From the sequence record PV874203.1: a DNA stretch of 64,000 nt, one strand, 5' to 3'. Source of the stretch: a phage. The notes beneath the pieces are model-generated. The model did no database searches and was not told where the DNA came from. It saw nothing but the letters and a program-made list of their open reading frames with translations. Positions 40,593 through 53,474 of the stretch are shown here, piece after piece. Every line of letters begins with the position of its first letter. Position 1 is the first letter of the stretch. A program made the translations under genes and the position numbers.

Positions 40593-41789
40593 TTAGTAGT
40601 TTACAACAGTACCATCATTCAGGGTAAGACTATTAATCTGCAACACACGACCAAGCTGACGATCACTAATTGGTGCGTTCCAGCCAGAGCGGTAGAAGTT
40701 ACGACCACAGAAGAAAACAATTACGTTACTTGCTACGGTCGAACCATTTTCAGGATGCTTGATGTTAGCGATATAATAACCACGACGCAGATTACGACGG
40801 GTGATTGGGGTGATCTCTAACCCTTGTTCTTCAACTTGCATTGTTTCAGGAACAGGTTCCGAAGACTCTTCAGCAACTGGCTCAGCTGCCAATGCAAAGT
40901 TTTCGTCATCTGCCGATTCAGCAAACTCTTCTTCCACTTCTTCAACAGGCAGCTCGTAAGCAACGCGGTAGTCAGGATCAACACCAGAGAAACTCTTAAC
41001 AAACTCAACAATGTTGTGAGTGTAAGTTTCCAGAGTTGTTCCAGTCAGGCCCGGAGCTGTATTAACTTCCAGAACCCAAGCGTTAGTACCTTTGCTAATC
41101 AGGTCAACAGCACCGAAGTTCAAACCCAGAGCGGATACAGCTTTGTGAGCTTGAATCAGAACTTGATCAGGAGGGGCTTCAGTGAAGGAGTTAGAATAAA
41201 CCCAACCAGTGTGATGGTTGCGAACATCTTCACGATAATTTTCCAGTTCACGATAACCGTTACGACGAATCTTCTTCTGAACGTAAGTGATGACACCTTC
41301 GAACACATGAACACGCCATTCACGACGTGGGCCTTGGATTCCTTTGGTGTACAGAGGAGCATCCGCAACACCTTCTCGAGTAAGACGAACAGTAATACCT
41401 TCCCCAGAGTGACCAGTTAAGGTTGCACGTTCATAAACAATTTCATTCCGGTTCCAGTTCAGAGCTAACTCACGATCAGTGGTGTATTCAACAGTCTTGA
41501 CTTCAGCTAAACTCAGTGCGTTAAATGCTGCAACTTTATTAGCTGCTCGGTTCAGAGCTTCAACGGTATTCAGTACAGTTGCACCACCAAAGAAAGAAGC
41601 ATCATAACGACGGTTGCCATAGTTTACAACAATATCACCAGCACGAGAACGATAACGAGAACCCTCTGATACCAGAGACATTACATTAGCATTTAAGCGA
41701 AGCTCCTGAATCTTAGTGTTAATTGCAGAAGTAAGTTCACGAACTGAATCAGAAGGGCCATAAGGAAGAACACGGATACGAGTAGTCAT
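40593..41789 (-). CDS. ATP-grasp family ligase (RimK / glutathione-synthetase-like) with acidic C-terminal region
   Basis: GAVDLISKGTNAWVLEVNTAPGL matches the ATP-grasp C-terminal motif (vLEvNt.PG). Confidence 0.65.
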   Translation of the reverse strand: MTTRIRVLPYGPSDSVRELTSAINTKIQELRLNANVMSLVSEGSRYRSRAGDIVVNYGNRRYDASFFGGATVLNTVEALNRAANKVAAFNALSLAEVKTVEYTTDRELALNWNRNEIVYERATLTGHSGEGITVRLTREGVADAPLYTKGIQGPRREWRVHVFEGVITYVQKKIRRNGYRELENYREDVRNHHTGWVYSNSFTEAPPDQVLIQAHKAVSALGLNFGAVDLISKGTNAWVLEVNTAPGLTGTTLETYTHNIVEFVKSFSGVDPDYRVAYELPVEEVEEEFAESADDENFALAAEPVAEESSEPVPETMQVEEQGLEITPITRRNLRRGYYIANIKHPENGSTVASNVIVFFCGRNFYRSGWNAPISDRQLGRVLQINSLTLNDGTVVNY

Positions 41790-41791
41790 TG

Positions 41792-42016
41792 TTAGATACC
41801 TTTAAGTTTAAGAATTTCGTTACGAGTTTTTTGAATCTGAGCTTCAATTTCGAAGTAGTCGTTGAACGCGTCGTTCTCTACTTCATCGGATGGTGCATCA
41901 ATTAGACCGAAAGCGAACGGATACAGCTTTCGCTGCTCCGTTACTAATTCGATATGAACTCCTATGTAATACTGTAGGAGAGTGATCTTCGGTTTCTTAG
42001 GAACCAGATTTGACAT
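41792..42016 (-). CDS. hypothetical small protein
   Basis: 74-aa ORF between the ATP-grasp and GATase genes. Confidence 0.4.
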   Translation of the reverse strand: MSNLVPKKPKITLLQYYIGVHIELVTEQRKLYPFAFGLIDAPSDEVENDAFNDYFEIEAQIQKTRNEILKLKGI

Positions 42017-42230
42017 GAGGTTCTACCTTAATGCCTTTGATTTTTACATAATCAGCAAGTACGTTATTGATCACCGTTGGGAAAGGAACCTCAACCTGTG
42101 TCTCAAGTACTTGACCAATACCAGCTTGCATCCACTTCTGGATTGCACGAAGGTTGTCACATCCTGTGCTCGTCATCGGGATACGTCGAGTAGTTACAAC
42201 GTTATCCAACATCATTTTTCTGATTTCCAT
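41997..42230 (-). CDS. hypothetical small protein
   Basis: 77-aa ORF directly downstream of the GATase gene. Confidence 0.4.
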   Translation of the reverse strand: MEIRKMMLDNVVTTRRIPMTSTGCDNLRAIQKWMQAGIGQVLETQVEVPFPTVINNVLADYVKIKGIKVEPHVKSGS

Positions 42231-42234
42231 AAAC

Positions 42235-44265
42235 TTAACCTCTATTCAATGAACATTTAGGAGAATTACAATAAACTTGATTCATAGAACCAAGCGTACA
42301 ACTTTCAGCATCGCGCCACGGAATCTGCTTAAAACACTCTGAACAGTAGCCGAGGGTTGACCACATTGCTTTGGTGAAGTCAGTGCTTCGGTTTCCGTCG
42401 AAGCTGACAACAGTTTTGCGGAGAGCTGTTCGTGATTCAGGAAACACACCTGCTTTCTCAGCAGGTTCCTCCTTTTTTGGCTTAGTTGAGATTGCAAAAA
42501 TACTGTTGCTACGTTTCTCAACATAAGCATCAACAACGTCCTCCAGAGTGATGCCTGTCTGTTTCGCTGAGGAAGGTAATACAGTCATACGACCGATCAT
42601 ATCTTCAGTTACACGTAAAGCAAATTCAGGACGACGGGTGTTTGTTGTATCTGTTGCTCTAATCCAGACATAACCGTCTTTGATCGTAGCATTAGATACT
42701 TTCTTCTTTACATCTACAGCGCAGACTTTACAGATATCTTCACCACGAAGACGACTAAGTTCTTCATCGAACTCATTCTCTGTTTTAACTTCACCACAGA
42801 TTTCACAAACACCAATAGGAGTTTCCTCCTCTTCTTCATCTTTAGGTTTAGTCAAACCTTCCAGACATTCAGGATGCCAGTAGCACTGATATGCGAAGGC
42901 TGCTTTAGGTGCATCCTTCCAATCAATGTGTTTGTCACAACCACCACAATCACCATGAGAGTGTGCTTCCCAGAACTTACGAGTGATAGTAACGCCATTC
43001 TTATTGACGAAACTATCATTCATGTCAAAAGGGATATCATCATCAAAGTCAGCAGTAGTAGACTCAGGCTCCTTTTTCTCCAGAGATGGGTCAACAAAAC
43101 GACCTGCTGTGATCACTAAACGAACCATAGCATTAACTTCGGAGATACAGGATACTGTCCCACGGTAAACGATTTTAGGGTCTTTCAGTGCGTCCTGATA
43201 AGCCTTAATGTCTACGTTATGAACATCACCTTCGATATACTCTTGAGACTTCTCATCGTAGATATAACCGATCATCTTACCACGAGAAGGAACAGCACCA
43301 GCTGTTGCATAAGGAACAAACTCATGTGGTGTGATTTCCACAGTCATGTCGCGGCGAATGTCAATGTTTCGATCGCTTGCGATTTTGTTTTGACTTACCA
43401 CTGCGTTTCTTCGACGAACGTCTGCCGCTGTCACTCCCGGCTTCGTGTCGTAAGGATTGCTTGTACTGCTTTTTGAGGAACTTTGATAGTTGCTTTGGCT
43501 GTAGTTGTTCGAGTAGTAATTGCCCCAACGATTGATTACCGTAAAAACCGGAAGCTCGTGGGCGACCTCTTCAACTAGAGTCATGCTGTTGTTTGACATA
43601 TCAAAGATATATTCTGTACCAACTTTACATTCAAAGTGCTCATCAATTCGGTTTTTGTGAGACTTAGAACGCTTCAGAATCCACATCAACATGTCTTCTT
43701 CAGAAGCACCAAACCAATCTCTGTTACAACGTGCAAGATGGAAAGGGCGCTCTTCATTACGGATGATATGAAGGCGGTTATCAGAAGCATCATGCCAGAT
43801 CAGTGTGAAAGCACCGTCCAACTTTTGGATAGTCTCTGCTGCACCAATAGTGTTAATAGAGTGGCAGATGTTCTCACTATCCACCTCGAAGTTTTTACTG
43901 TCAGGTAACAGGTCTTGGTCCATCAAGGTTCCGTTATGAACCAGAGTGATATTACCATGTTGGAAAGGATGGGCGTTCTTGGCGTTAACTGCACCTTTCG
44001 TTGCATGACGGCTGTGACCAACAATCCATGAAGGCGCTACAGTGTAAGCTGTTTCACCAGTGGTGTGCTTCTTGTACTCATCTTGAAGGATGAATGCGAA
44101 AGAAGGAAGGGCTTCTTTGTAAGTGAAGACCTCCTTAGTGCTCTTACGCTGACCAAAGATACCAGAGGAATGTTGCCCTCGGAATACCCCAGCATAAAAG
44201 AGTTGGTTAAATACGTCTAAATCAGTGCTTGACAGATTACCGCCAGCTAATACGATGCCACAAAT
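42235..44265 (-). CDS. class II (Ntn) glutamine amidotransferase domain protein with Cys-rich zinc-ribbon C-terminal region; probable non-AUG (AUU) start
   Basis: Frame is open upstream of the track start (TTG at 43926) and reads (I)CGIVLAGG...FRGQHSSGIFG..., matching the N-terminal Cys nucleophile and RGQ motif of GlmS/PurF/AsnB-type GATases. AGGTGG SD sits 8 nt before an ATT codon preceding Cys. C-terminal half has several CxxC pairs. Confidence 0.6.
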   Translation of the reverse strand: MCGIVLAGGNLSSTDLDVFNQLFYAGVFRGQHSSGIFGQRKSTKEVFTYKEALPSFAFILQDEYKKHTTGETAYTVAPSWIVGHSRHATKGAVNAKNAHPFQHGNITLVHNGTLMDQDLLPDSKNFEVDSENICHSINTIGAAETIQKLDGAFTLIWHDASDNRLHIIRNEERPFHLARCNRDWFGASEEDMLMWILKRSKSHKNRIDEHFECKVGTEYIFDMSNNSMTLVEEVAHELPVFTVINRWGNYYSNNYSQSNYQSSSKSSTSNPYDTKPGVTAADVRRRNAVVSQNKIASDRNIDIRRDMTVEITPHEFVPYATAGAVPSRGKMIGYIYDEKSQEYIEGDVHNVDIKAYQDALKDPKIVYRGTVSCISEVNAMVRLVITAGRFVDPSLEKKEPESTTADFDDDIPFDMNDSFVNKNGVTITRKFWEAHSHGDCGGCDKHIDWKDAPKAAFAYQCYWHPECLEGLTKPKDEEEEETPIGVCEICGEVKTENEFDEELSRLRGEDICKVCAVDVKKKVSNATIKDGYVWIRATDTTNTRRPEFALRVTEDMIGRMTVLPSSAKQTGITLEDVVDAYVEKRSNSIFAISTKPKKEEPAEKAGVFPESRTALRKTVVSFDGNRSTDFTKAMWSTLGYCSECFKQIPWRDAESCTLGSMNQVYCNSPKCSLNRG

Positions 44266-44344
44266 TTTCTAATCCACCTGAAGGGTAAACCCTTTCATCT
44301 AATTAACCTTTAAATTGTGCCCCTTTATCAGAGGCACCCATTGA

Positions 44345-45448
44345 TTACAGCGCTTGCTCTAACTGATTTTCCAGATGATCTGGAATGTACCCTGTGATAT
44401 TGCTATCACTGTGTCCTGACTCACGTAGCAAGTCAAAAATAGCACGGATACGTTGCTCTGGTGCAGATCGTACAGTAGATAAATCAGTTGTACGAAGCAT
44501 AACCAGAATCTCTTGGTACAAGTTGTTAGCGTTCCCTCGGACATATCCAAGGAATCCGTAGAAGTCTGACATATAACGTAAGTCAACAAGAACATCTCCG
44601 TTGGAGTTGGTTCGACGTAAACGAATACGACCAGACTGCTCTACTCCATGAGAACGGCAATACAAAACATCACGGGCCATACAATAGCCTGAATGCAAAT
44701 CCGACTCGTCCAGATTGTAATCCAGAGGAAGGTAAGGAAGCATCGGGGCAAATCGTACAGTATTTAAATGCTCAATAAACTGATCATTGCTCATCTCTGC
44801 GTTATCTAATGCCAGCTTCTTCAACATCAAGAAGCGGTTAACCAGATTGAGAAGTTGACCACGTTTCCACTTAGGCTCACTGATACGGAACTCAATCGAA
44901 CCGTATTGGGCAAGTGGCAGAAGGTTCAGAGATGTATATTTATCCCATGAACGAACCAGACGGTTGAAGAACTCTTCATCGTCGTAGTTAAATGCGTCAG
45001 AGGCATTCATTACCTGTGCTTGTACCACTGCGAAAGCAGGGCAGAAGTTGCTACGGTAACGATGGTAGCCTGAACACTTGAACAACATCTTTTCATAGAA
45101 GGTCCAAGCGAGAACGGTTTTCTTGAGGATATTACTATCAGCATCCCTCATATCCATATGAACGTGAGTAGAGCAACGCCAAGTCCCCTCGGCGTGCGAT
45201 TCAGCTACTGCTTCACTCAGGTTGTTGATAGCGTCTAACAACTCCTGTCCGTTGTAAGGTCGTGAACATACCATTTCACAACCATTACGCAGGGAACCAT
45301 CCTCTGTACAATCCCACATATCTGCTTCGATATGATCGGAACCTTCGAGTTCAAGTTCAATACCGACACCGCACTGAAGTGCAATTGAACTATGCGCCTC
45401 AGTTAAACGACCTTCTCGATATCCAAAAGTTTGCGCTACAGTTGTCAT
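44345..45448 (-). CDS. Amidoligase_2-type COOH-NH2 ligase (glutamine-synthetase-like fold)
   Basis: GVGIELELEG, TEDGSLRNGCEMV, STHVHMD and GSIEFR fit the conserved blocks of the amidoligase family. Confidence 0.6.
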   Translation of the reverse strand: MTTVAQTFGYREGRLTEAHSSIALQCGVGIELELEGSDHIEADMWDCTEDGSLRNGCEMVCSRPYNGQELLDAINNLSEAVAESHAEGTWRCSTHVHMDMRDADSNILKKTVLAWTFYEKMLFKCSGYHRYRSNFCPAFAVVQAQVMNASDAFNYDDEEFFNRLVRSWDKYTSLNLLPLAQYGSIEFRISEPKWKRGQLLNLVNRFLMLKKLALDNAEMSNDQFIEHLNTVRFAPMLPYLPLDYNLDESDLHSGYCMARDVLYCRSHGVEQSGRIRLRRTNSNGDVLVDLRYMSDFYGFLGYVRGNANNLYQEILVMLRTTDLSTVRSAPEQRIRAIFDLLRESGHSDSNITGYIPDHLENQLEQAL

Positions 45449-46062
45449 AACGAATCCACCAACGTAATATTGTAATTGCTAAGGTTTTCAGAAATGTGAT
45501 GAAAGTGTTCCAGAAGTCGCATCGGTTGCTGACCGTAAGAGTCACGAGGCGCTTCCAGATCTACTTGTCCTACCAGTGCACCTTTATAATGCACCTTACC
45601 ATCAGTAGGGTTGATGTAAATATAACGAGTGACCAATCCTTCGAATTCAGGATTGAACAGACTGTAAACCATCTCCCCGGAGATAGCACGACCAACACCC
45701 GGAGCATTTCGAATCTTGTTACCCATCAAACCCTTTGCTCTCTGACGAACAGGGTTAATATGAGTCCAGCTTACAGTGTTACCGTTATGGAACAGATAAC
45801 CAACATCAGGTGATTCAAGAATCAAGGTTGGGTCGAACACTGGAATACTTATCGTAGTGTTTCGAAGGTGCCCTTGCTCATTCTTGTACCACTGCTCTAC
45901 AACAAAGTACAGAGCCTGTTCTGCTTCGTGAGAGAAGTCATCGCTGCGGAAGTTACCGCTCTGCTCGACACCGATCACAAAACACGGAAGGTTGATATTA
46001 CCTGCTCGTTTAGCAATCCATGTACCATTATAGTAATGAGAAAAATCAGCTACTAAGCTCAC
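45445..46062 (-). CDS. hypothetical protein (cluster member)
   Basis: 205-aa ORF overlapping the amidoligase start by 4 nt. Confidence 0.45.
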   Translation of the reverse strand: MSLVADFSHYYNGTWIAKRAGNINLPCFVIGVEQSGNFRSDDFSHEAEQALYFVVEQWYKNEQGHLRNTTISIPVFDPTLILESPDVGYLFHNGNTVSWTHINPVRQRAKGLMGNKIRNAPGVGRAISGEMVYSLFNPEFEGLVTRYIYINPTDGKVHYKGALVGQVDLEAPRDSYGQQPMRLLEHFHHISENLSNYNITLVDSL

Positions 46063-53398: not shown

Positions 53399-53474
53399 TG
53401 GTGCACCCTACAGGACTCGAACCTGTAACCAACGACTTAGAAGGTCGCTGCTCTGTCCATTGAGCTAAGGGTGC
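53399..53474 (-). tRNA. tRNA-Arg (anticodon UCU), CCA encoded
   Basis: Minus-strand cloverleaf: 7-bp acceptor stem GCACCCU/AGGGUGC, D-arm GCUC/GAGC, anticodon loop CUUCUAA, T-arm ACAGG-UUCGAGU-CCUGU, 3' ACCA. Confidence 0.85.

Follow-up and report, generated by a model that had tools for sequence, protein, structure and literature searches.

A probable AUU start codon behind a highly conserved leader in a glutamine amidotransferase-like gene of phiEco32-like coliphages

Class-II glutamine amidotransferases (GATases) need a cysteine as the N-terminal residue of the mature enzyme, which is usually exposed through removal of the initiator methionine. In Bacillus subtilis PurF, the catalytic cysteine is preceded by an N-terminal propeptide of 11 residues. 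Here we analyse the start of a GATase-like gene in a 64,000-nt stretch of sequence record PV874203.1 (the window; all coordinates are those of the whole stretch), which represents a phiEco32-like coliphage (Kuravirus, Gordonclarkvirinae). The gene is located on the minus strand and the codon in front of its cysteine codon is ATT. To our knowledge, the confirmed AUU starts in bacteria can be counted on one hand (infC, pcnB). Starts in Escherichia coli are ATG (83%), GTG (14%) and TTG (3%), with AUU confirmed for infC and pcnB only (bioRxiv 10.1101/063800). Initiation at AUA, AUC and AUU reaches about 1-2% of the level at AUG, and a reporter started with AUC retained its N-terminal Met (bioRxiv 10.1101/063800).

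The AUU or AUC start of infC is the target of autoregulation by the initiation factor IF3 (PMC5499595), and at the natural junction UAA GGU AUU about half of infC translation is due to reinitiation (PMC3592434). The phage gene resembles the E. coli thrS-infC arrangement in its non-canonical AUU start, in a Shine-Dalgarno (SD) sequence located inside an upstream open reading frame (ORF), and in the stop codon of that ORF, which lies 3 nt before AUU in both cases (UAG AAA AUU here). It differs in that the upstream ORF is a full gene in E. coli and a mini-ORF of 9 codons in the window. Moreover, infC encodes the factor that reads the codon, whereas the GATase is an enzyme, so that any regulation through its start would be a form of sensing, with a role for IF3 that we infer. 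The AUU start of pcnB is described, in the statements that cite the original work, as a means of restricting translation of an enzyme whose excess does harm (cited in PMC3592434 and bioRxiv 10.1101/063800). The phage gene shares with E. coli pcnB the AUU start and an enzyme as product, but pcnB is a single chromosomal gene, whereas AUU or AUC (AUY) starts occur in about 18% of the lineages of one phage gene family, in leader cassettes that appear exchangeable.

With regard to the protein, B. subtilis PurF is similar in having a short extension before the cysteine. The window contains a 12-codon in-frame stretch at this place, but a conserved UAG two codons before AUU breaks it. PurF, GlmS and AsnB of E. 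coli have in common with the predicted phage protein the N-terminal nucleophile (Ntn) fold, Cys as the first mature residue and the RG, GH.R.AT.G, NAHP, HNG and D[ST]E motifs. They differ by their AUG starts and by a known synthase domain, whereas the C-terminal ~440 residues of the phage protein are Cys-rich and without a Pfam match, and the phage gene is located within a cluster of amidoligase, ATP-grasp and COOH-NH2 ligase genes of predicted function (PMC10580990).

The coding sequence (CDS) has been annotated from the same ATT in phiEco32 (NC_010324, phi32_83, YP_001671828.1; 2008), SU10 and BASEL phage Bas93, and at the level of annotation the ATT start of the GATase gene is prior art. 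These annotations do not include the family pattern, the conservation of the leader or the exchange of cassettes. No discussion of the annotated ATT in the three phages was retrieved by a literature search that did not reach the phiEco32 papers, and nothing relevant on AUU or ATT starts in phage genes was found in the literature searched. Within this literature, the family-wide recurrence of AUY, the exchange of AUY genes' own leader cassettes and the invariant infC-like leader appear to be undescribed.

Start codon and catalytic domain of the amidotransferase gene

The GATase frame is open from position 44268 (minus strand), about 340 nt upstream of the start given by a mechanical ORF list, as noted in a preliminary description of the window that was made from the letters alone. 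It begins with AAA ATT TGT GGC ATC GTA, corresponding to K-I-CGIVLAGGNLSSTDLDVFNQLFYAGVFRGQHSSGIFG..., and is preceded by an in-frame TAG (44271..44269). There is no ATG, GTG or TTG between this stop codon and the Cys codon TGT (44260..44262), which leaves the ATT at 44263..44265 as the sole in-frame start-like codon before Cys, again as described. The first canonical in-frame start is a TTG at codon 113 (43924..43926), with a weak SD (-3.5 kcal/mol); it is the start taken by ORF finders, including the mechanical list, which gives it as position 43926, and by many GenBank records. Counted from ATT, the full-length gene (42235..44265), as delineated by frame reading and by Pfam, PHROG and PDB profile searches, has a CDS of 2031 nt that consists of ATT, 675 further codons and a stop.

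To place this codon in a comparative context, we used homologues gathered by protein similarity, and not by motif, in four scans of IMG/VR, which yielded 182 clusters at <70% identity and 192 cluster-by-start-codon representatives. The codon before Cys in the 182 clusters was ATG (150), ATT (26), ATC (8), TTG (7) or GTG (1), and no other codon was seen. ATG-TGY was thus present in 150 of the 192 representatives, while AUY accounted for 34 (~18%), about fourfold more than GTG and TTG together. AUY members were mixed with ATG or TTG members in nine clusters of proteins with >70% identity. In 25 of 33 AUY lineages the frame is closed by a stop 2-21 codons upstream, and no canonical start lies between this stop and AUY; in the window, the stop is located 2 codons upstream. 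A position before Cys that holds nothing but start-capable codons, where ATG can be replaced by others and which follows a stop, is in our view that of the start codon.

The sequence AAA-ATT-TGT is found behind a common leader in all three coliphage genera and in Aeromonas phage BUCT695. In Salmonella phage 7-11, Cronobacter phage GAP52, Proteus phage P59 and Vibrio phage Vp_R1, the corresponding site reads ATG-TGT and the leader in front of it is unrelated, and many metagenomic phages likewise have ATG-TGY there. Relatives with ATG-TGT had been named beforehand as a possible sign of a sequencing error in the window; they do exist, but only behind completely different leaders, and so give no sign of error. 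The SD duplexes of AUY leaders were stronger than those of canonical leaders (medians of -8.0 vs. -6.5 kcal/mol, p=0.001). Three AUY lineages adjoin the upstream gene as TAA-A-ATT and two have an upstream stop 4 nt before AUY. The GATase gene is also the only long frame in the window that has a hairpin-SD-AUY module and lacks a canonical start. The earlier proposal of AUU initiation with Cys at position 2 is supported by these comparisons, by the ATG at the homologous position and by the lack of a canonical alternative start in most AUY lineages, and the gene very likely starts at the AUU immediately before the catalytic Cys codon.

Four AUY lineages (L049, L174, L168 and L188) have tandem near-cognate codons at positions -2/-1 before Cys (ATT-ATT, ATT-ATC, ATC-ATC and ATC-ATT). 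If the upstream codon of such a pair were used, the product would begin with Met-Ile-Cys, a sequence that is not expected to be processed by methionine aminopeptidase.

By all sequence criteria tested, the predicted product is a class-II glutamine amidotransferase. The GATase domain covers approximately residues 1-230. Pfam GATase_6 matched the full protein with 55.1 bits and the form truncated at TTG with 23.7 bits (cut-off 27), and GATase_7 gave 27.4 bits (cut-off 25). The Cys, residue 1 of the mature enzyme, aligned to position 2 of the PHROG 4736 profile, right after Met, and a profile of eight homologues matched the Ntn-amidotransferase domains of GlmS, PurF and AsnB in PDB (E 1e-6 to 1e-3). 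Residues C1, G2, I3, V4, R28, G29, N96, H98, P99, H109, N110, G111, D128, S129 and E130 were invariant in the family alignment (A1), and of these C1, G2, R28, G29, N96, H98, P99, H109, N110 and G111 are among those within the first 112 residues. The oxyanion-hole and glutamine-binding residues (RG, N-x-H-P, HNG, D-S/T-E) align with WATHG...NAHP...HNG...TDTE of GlmS. The segment upstream of the TTG, which includes the peptide CGIVLAGGNLSSTDLDVFNQLFYAGVFR within residues 1-112 of the 676-aa protein, does hold the most diagnostic part of the enzyme, as had been claimed: it contains the catalytic Cys and invariant motifs, and the Pfam score is lost without it.

To quantify the constraint on this segment, we counted codon differences between genera in the first 112 codons. 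The ratios of synonymous to nonsynonymous differences were 51:25, 42:22 and 46:25, and because of this approximately 2:1 synonymous excess we consider these codons to be translated and under purifying selection. A terminator-like site at 44165..44180 (minus strand), GAGGGCAACATTCCTC followed by TGGTATCTTT, is located within the codons for the conserved FRGQHSSGIFG and is probably a fortuitous match within coding DNA. The C-terminal ~440 residues gave no match when compared with Pfam; in 42235..43570 (minus strand) they contain three Cys-rich CxxC...CxxC modules that are zinc-ribbon-like (HGDCGGCDKH...CYWHPEC, VCEICGEV...CKVCA and GYCSECFKQ...YCNSPKC).

The catalytic segment is missing from most of the public annotations. 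Among 43 Kuravirus rows inspected, 26 had no feature over the first 113 nt, 2 had spurious small ORFs and 2 had a 'terminator' feature. In the record WFI101126, for example, the initial 113 nt of the coding region are labelled as a 'terminator'. SR02 and O18-011 are annotated from an internal GTG at codon 26 and the Suseptimaviruses from an ATG at codon 12, while KBNP1711 and BUCT695 also have internal annotated starts and other records use an internal TTG. The expectation that standard gene callers truncate the protein has thus been borne out, with most records starting internally or leaving the N-terminal part unannotated. About three quarters of the public Kuravirus, Suseptimavirus and Nieuwekanaalvirus records, and BUCT695, lack the catalytic Cys or half of the catalytic domain. 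Such truncated proteins are passed on to sequence databases and family models, and callers confined to ATG, GTG and TTG are unable to repair the annotation. In a proteomic study of SU10, the protein was detected by mass spectrometry with 9 peptides, which is evidence at the protein level that does not cover the N-terminus (PMC4281155).

The leader and its conservation

In minus-strand order, the stop codon of the amidoligase gene (TAA, 44347..44345) is followed by a GC-rich hairpin (44337..44317), the leader, the ATT and the GATase frame. Leader and start together read TTTAAAGGTTAATTAG ATG AAA GGG TTT ACC CTT CAG GTG GAT TAG AAA ATT TGT GGC ATC GTA. A 701-nt query around the site matched 97 GenBank phage records at 75-97% identity. 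The 65-nt segment comprising leader and start (44312..44248) was 100% identical in 69 GenBank records, one base off in 28 and 91% identical in BUCT695; in the sequences read, the one-base variant is a synonymous GGC>GGT change at codon 2. Conservation of the ATT and its SD in homologues, which had been suggested as a check, is therefore seen in all 97 coliphage records, and independent metagenome contigs carry the identical leader and start. Across four genus-level coliphage representatives, 96% of positions -51 to -1 were invariant as compared to 50-59% in the flanking coding DNA, and with BUCT695 added the corresponding values were 86% and 24-32%.

The SD sequence of the AUU is AGGTGGA (44273..44279), of which AGGTGG is located at 44279..44274. 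Its AGGUG core, 8-9 nt upstream of AUU, forms 5 bp with the 3' tail of 16S rRNA, at -5.9 kcal/mol with a 9-nt anti-SD and -7.2 kcal/mol with the 13-nt 16S tail. Both of the other candidate sites, before the mini-ORF AUG (-3.4 kcal/mol) and before the TTG (-3.5 kcal/mol), are clearly weaker. The position given for the SD in the preliminary description, 8 nt before ATT, was exact, but its qualification as strong was generous. Directly 5' of the SD is a small 5-bp hairpin, AAGGG-UUUA-CCCUU (44281..44294), which folds inside the mini-ORF and is kept in BUCT695.

The mini-ORF itself (44298..44269; ATG at 44298..44296) encodes MKGFTLQVD* (ATGAAAGGGTTTACCCTTCAGGTGGATTAG) and ends at the in-frame TAG before AAA-ATT-TGT, as first described. 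It is an upstream ORF with its own AUG, in frame with the gene, and its stop codon UAG is located within a few nucleotides, namely 3 nt, of the downstream start. A weak SD-like AAAGG (44307..44311) lies 8 nt 5' of its AUG. Every member of the Gordonclarkvirinae that was read has the mini-ORF, and so does BUCT695, with the peptide MKGLTLQAD*. The two base changes in BUCT695, one in the hairpin loop (GGGTTAACCC) and one in the SD, result in conservative replacements (F>L and V>A).

Several other readings of the leader were tried and discarded. An alternative stem that sequesters the SD, GGUUUACC/GGUGGAUU, is part of the minimum-energy fold, but both BUCT695 substitutions break it and the stem is thus not conserved. 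A -1 frameshift at A-AAU-UUG was rejected by inspection, as the frames are unconnected to the GATase frame. As a repeated promoter-like element, TTTAAAKGTWAA had 6 matches in the window vs. about 3 expected, which is not significant, and the window has no further copy of the leader motif. An Rfam scan of the leader placed it in no family, with best scores of 14-17 bits against cut-offs of 44-70 bits (E 0.8-7); among recoding elements, the match to the astrovirus frameshift element scored 14 bits against a cut-off of 70 bits. Pattern scans of IMG/VR and metagenomes for covariation in the window leader gave only identical copies plus chance matches.

The GATase gene of Kuraviruses belongs to the sigma-70 early region, and the published phiEco32 gp36 promoter motif, tAATGTATAtA, fits the window leader poorly. 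In Grimontviridae relatives (L007, L018-L020, L006, L009), TTTAAATGTAA(A/T) is located 20-30 nt before the GATase start and resembles the gp36 motif, and the window has TTTAAAGGTTAA, a poorer match, at the equivalent place. Judged from these motifs, the GATase gene of those relatives may be transcribed from a separate phage-sigma promoter, with a leader that is very short.

AUY leaders and gene neighbourhood across the phage family

We also examined the leaders of other AUY lineages. In two discovery sets, a hairpin ending 11-17 nt before the start was present in 12/14 AUY vs. 13/86 canonical leaders (p=3e-7; p=1.7e-4 and 1.4e-3 for the two sets taken separately), a criterion that was derived from the discovery sets themselves. 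When only free-standing leaders of these sets were considered, the hairpin was present in 11/11 AUY and 3/17 canonical leaders. These AUY hairpins are compact and perfect, and their stem sequence differs from lineage to lineage. Hairpins are carried, among others, by the leader family of the window and by those of GGAGGAT[AT]A... and GGAGATGAGAAA, while the large GGAGATTTTATT-ATT family has none. A stop triplet in the spacer between SD and start was seen in 14/14 AUY vs. 53/86 canonical leaders (p=0.004); as a post hoc observation on spacers rich in A and T, it is only noted here as a possible AUY-specific trait. In three IMG/VR contigs (L091, L097, L098), AAAGGGAAAACCCTTCAGGAGGA is followed by 11 nt and then ATG at an unrelated locus; hairpin and SD are designed as in the window leader, but with a canonical start and another gene context.

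The genes also differ in their relation to the upstream gene. Genes with canonical starts overlap or abut it in 55/86 cases (gap of -1 to 5 nt), whereas AUY genes have their own leader or an upstream stop 1-20 nt before AUY. Six pairs of proteins with 96-99% identity had leaders that were unrelated up to the start (L063/L058, L174/L160, L223/L224, L244/L245, L320/L314 and L337/L317), with homology resuming at TGYGG. In L320 and L314, for example, a common upstream sequence is followed by CAAAGCC-ACA-GGCTTT-C-GGAGGATAATACT-ATT in one and AGAGGTTTAAT-TTG in the other. Because the leaders are unrelated between near-identical genes, AUY seems to have been exchanged together with its translation initiation region (TIR) rather than by point mutation in place. 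Likewise, the window leader is common to BUCT695, with 48% protein identity, and absent from closer relatives of the ATG type (63%). In L313, at 34% identity, the TIR is nearly the same (AGGAGGATTAGAAA-ATT-TGTGGC) and contains the in-frame TAG, but the hairpin before it is another one.

These patterns raise the idea that initiation at AUU or AUC has been selected for in the phage amidotransferase family, recurs in it and can be exchanged horizontally, with a swapped TIR cassette that confers uncoupled, discrimination-dependent expression; we put it forward as a tentative reading that is less likely to be right than wrong. The cassette in this reading would consist of an SD, often abutting a hairpin, an A/U-rich spacer with a stop triplet and AUY.

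The neighbourhood of the gene (40593..46062, minus strand) comprises a COOH-NH2 ligase gene, a hypothetical gene, the amidoligase gene (PF12224), the GATase gene, two small overlapping ORFs (41997..42230 and 41792..42016) beside it and an ATP-grasp (RimK-like) gene, and is kept from coliphages to Vibrio, Aeromonas and Pseudomonas phages. A role of the cluster in peptide or cell-wall modification has been predicted, according to PMC10580990, which cites Iyer 2009. The hairpin just past the amidoligase stop, an 8-bp GC-rich stem (GUGCCUCU-GAUAA-AGGGGCAC, 44317..44337), is terminator-like but poor in its U-tract. In relatives the stem is kept through a different sequence (GCGCTCT...AGGGCGC in ECBP2 and SU7) or with a shorter loop (KBNP1711), and the changed stem sequence suggests a conserved RNA or terminator structure. 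A single phage tRNA, tRNA-Arg (anticodon TCT), is located at 53399..53474 (minus strand). HNH homing-endonuclease genes are found beside or within the cluster in relatives, as in SU7 (L005, 1..42), and ORF24 of UFV-P2, an HNH homing endonuclease, is located directly between the amidoligase and GATase genes (PMC3890496). The intergenic site 5' of the GATase gene may be an insertion hot spot for mobile elements, which could relate to the exchange of leader cassettes.

Proposed mechanism, rival explanations and implications

In the mechanism that we propose, the AGGUG SD 8-9 nt upstream would position ribosomes at AUU and the initiator tRNA would supply formylmethionine (fMet), after which Cys1 would be uncovered by deformylase and methionine aminopeptidase, in the manner of PurF, GlmS and AsnB of E. 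coli. The AUU would be a weak start, discriminated against by IF3, and we propose that the gene is for this reason located behind a dedicated conserved leader, made up of a small hairpin, the SD and an A-rich spacer, instead of overlapping the amidoligase gene. Termination and reinitiation from the 9-codon mini-ORF, which covers hairpin and SD in a geometry like that of thrS/infC, are included as a possible aid. The net effect would be an expression of the amidotransferase that is low or IF3-sensitive relative to its neighbours in the early operon. As a whole, the combination of AUU start, fMet, Met removal, dedicated leader, possible reinitiation and low or IF3-sensitive expression is in our judgement likely to be the best explanation. 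Taken separately, assistance by reinitiation is a possibility that we rate below even.

A number of observations weigh against this explanation or parts of it. The SD before AUU is only moderate. That of the mini-ORF is weak, its AAAGG is absent from BUCT695, which has AAATG instead, and L313, which shares the TIR and the in-frame TAG, lacks the 9-codon ORF, and these findings make the reinitiation step uncertain. The start region, AUUUGUGG (44258..44265, minus strand), holds an out-of-frame UUG at +2 and GUG at +4 that would open ORFs of 8 and 4 codons (MWHRISWR* and MASY*); both triplets might be decoys or draw initiation away from AUU. About five AUY lineages have an in-frame ATG, GTG or TTG 12-13 codons upstream of Cys, so a propeptide form is possible in some relatives. 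In the held-out set, which served as the test of the hairpin criterion, a hairpin was present in 6/19 AUY vs. 8/72 canonical leaders (p=0.07), and in 2/9 vs. 1/13 of the free leaders. A hairpin abutting the SD as a universal partner of AUY was thus not convincingly replicated, and by this comparison the hairpin appears as a trait of some AUY leader families and not as a general requirement. Finally, the near-total invariance over 50 nt exceeds what an SD and a hairpin would be expected to need.

Other explanations differ in which codon, if any, starts the catalytic domain. The ATT could be an error of sequencing or assembly for ATG, from which it differs by one base and which more distant relatives have before TGT. 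The same sequence is, however, present in 97 independently sequenced phage genomes and several metagenome assemblies, and ATT or ATC occurs in 34 cluster-by-start-codon representatives; the replication of leader and ATT across the records and metagenomes excludes a base-call error. It is also hardly conceivable that the N-terminal domain is unexpressed, the product being a 563-aa protein initiated at TTG 43926 or at some other internal codon, and the 340 nt before it a decaying remnant. Most GenBank records are annotated in this way and the SU10 paper lists 63.8 kDa, equal to the truncated size (PMC4281155), but that figure is a database value and not a measurement. The 112 codons are kept open in all relatives with a 2:1 synonymous excess and invariant catalytic residues, the SD of the TTG is weak, and the shortened product would lack Cys1 and half of the GATase fold and fall below the Pfam cut-off. 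From these features, TTG 43926 is very probably not the biological start.

We likewise regard it as very improbable, though a little less so, that ribosomes start at the mini-ORF AUG and read through the UAG, with a 12-residue propeptide (MKGFTLQVD-X-KI) whose autocatalytic removal would uncover Cys1, like that of B. subtilis PurF and other Ntn hydrolases. The propeptide of PurF is an established precedent, the mini-ORF is in frame with its AUG exactly 12 codons before Cys, its substitutions in BUCT695 are conservative, and an uninterrupted in-frame start is present at -12 in L112 and L341 (ATG) and at -13 in L342, L203 and L270 (ATG, TTG and GTG). Yet the UAG is invariant in all of the more than 97 relatives, and a continuous ORF is confined to a few distant AUY lineages, whereas in most of the AUY lineages the frame contains stops and lacks any start upstream; the SD of the mini-ORF is weak, and the window encodes tRNA-Arg(tct) only and no suppressor tRNA. 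Moreover, an internal codon at -1 could be any codon, but in the 182 clusters it is always start-capable. For the few lineages concerned, the recurrent in-frame starts at -12/-13 may point to a propeptide or to the use of an alternative start. The leaders predicted from -12/-13 in AUY lineages look alike (MTVFIRLGDEKI, MTFVIRKNGDFII, MEAPIRCHGDFII), a count that is post hoc and includes lineages that may not be independent.

A different kind of alternative accepts the AUU start and takes the 50-nt leader to be mainly an operator for a trans-acting regulator, such as an RNA-binding protein of phage or host, the enzyme itself or a small RNA. Its invariance relative to the adjacent coding DNA, also when the Aeromonas phage is included, and the lack of variation in 97 records or metagenomes would fit such a role. 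Since the stem sequence varies freely in other AUY leader families, structure alone does not explain the invariance of the window leader. On the other hand, the leader has no match in Rfam and its motif occurs only once in the window, and the overlapping constraints of mini-ORF, hairpin, SD, stop and start, or a recent transfer of the cassette, could equally give invariance. We consider an operator unlikely, although clearly less so than readthrough or a truncated product.

The leader of the window is a compact and invariant experimental model, with the stop of the mini-ORF 3 nt before AUU as in infC, and the family as a whole is a comparative data set on what makes AUY initiation work. If AUY initiation is indeed a recurrent and exchangeable trait, no natural set of AUY-start genes other than infC would be as large as this family, and its Cys-anchored N-terminus would make it a natural reporter of starts that gene callers miss in phages. 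The phage would then time or throttle the enzyme by the state of the host translation apparatus, through IF3 activity or reinitiation from the mini-ORF. This leads to the testable idea that phages may tune an enzyme within an operon by start-codon discrimination.

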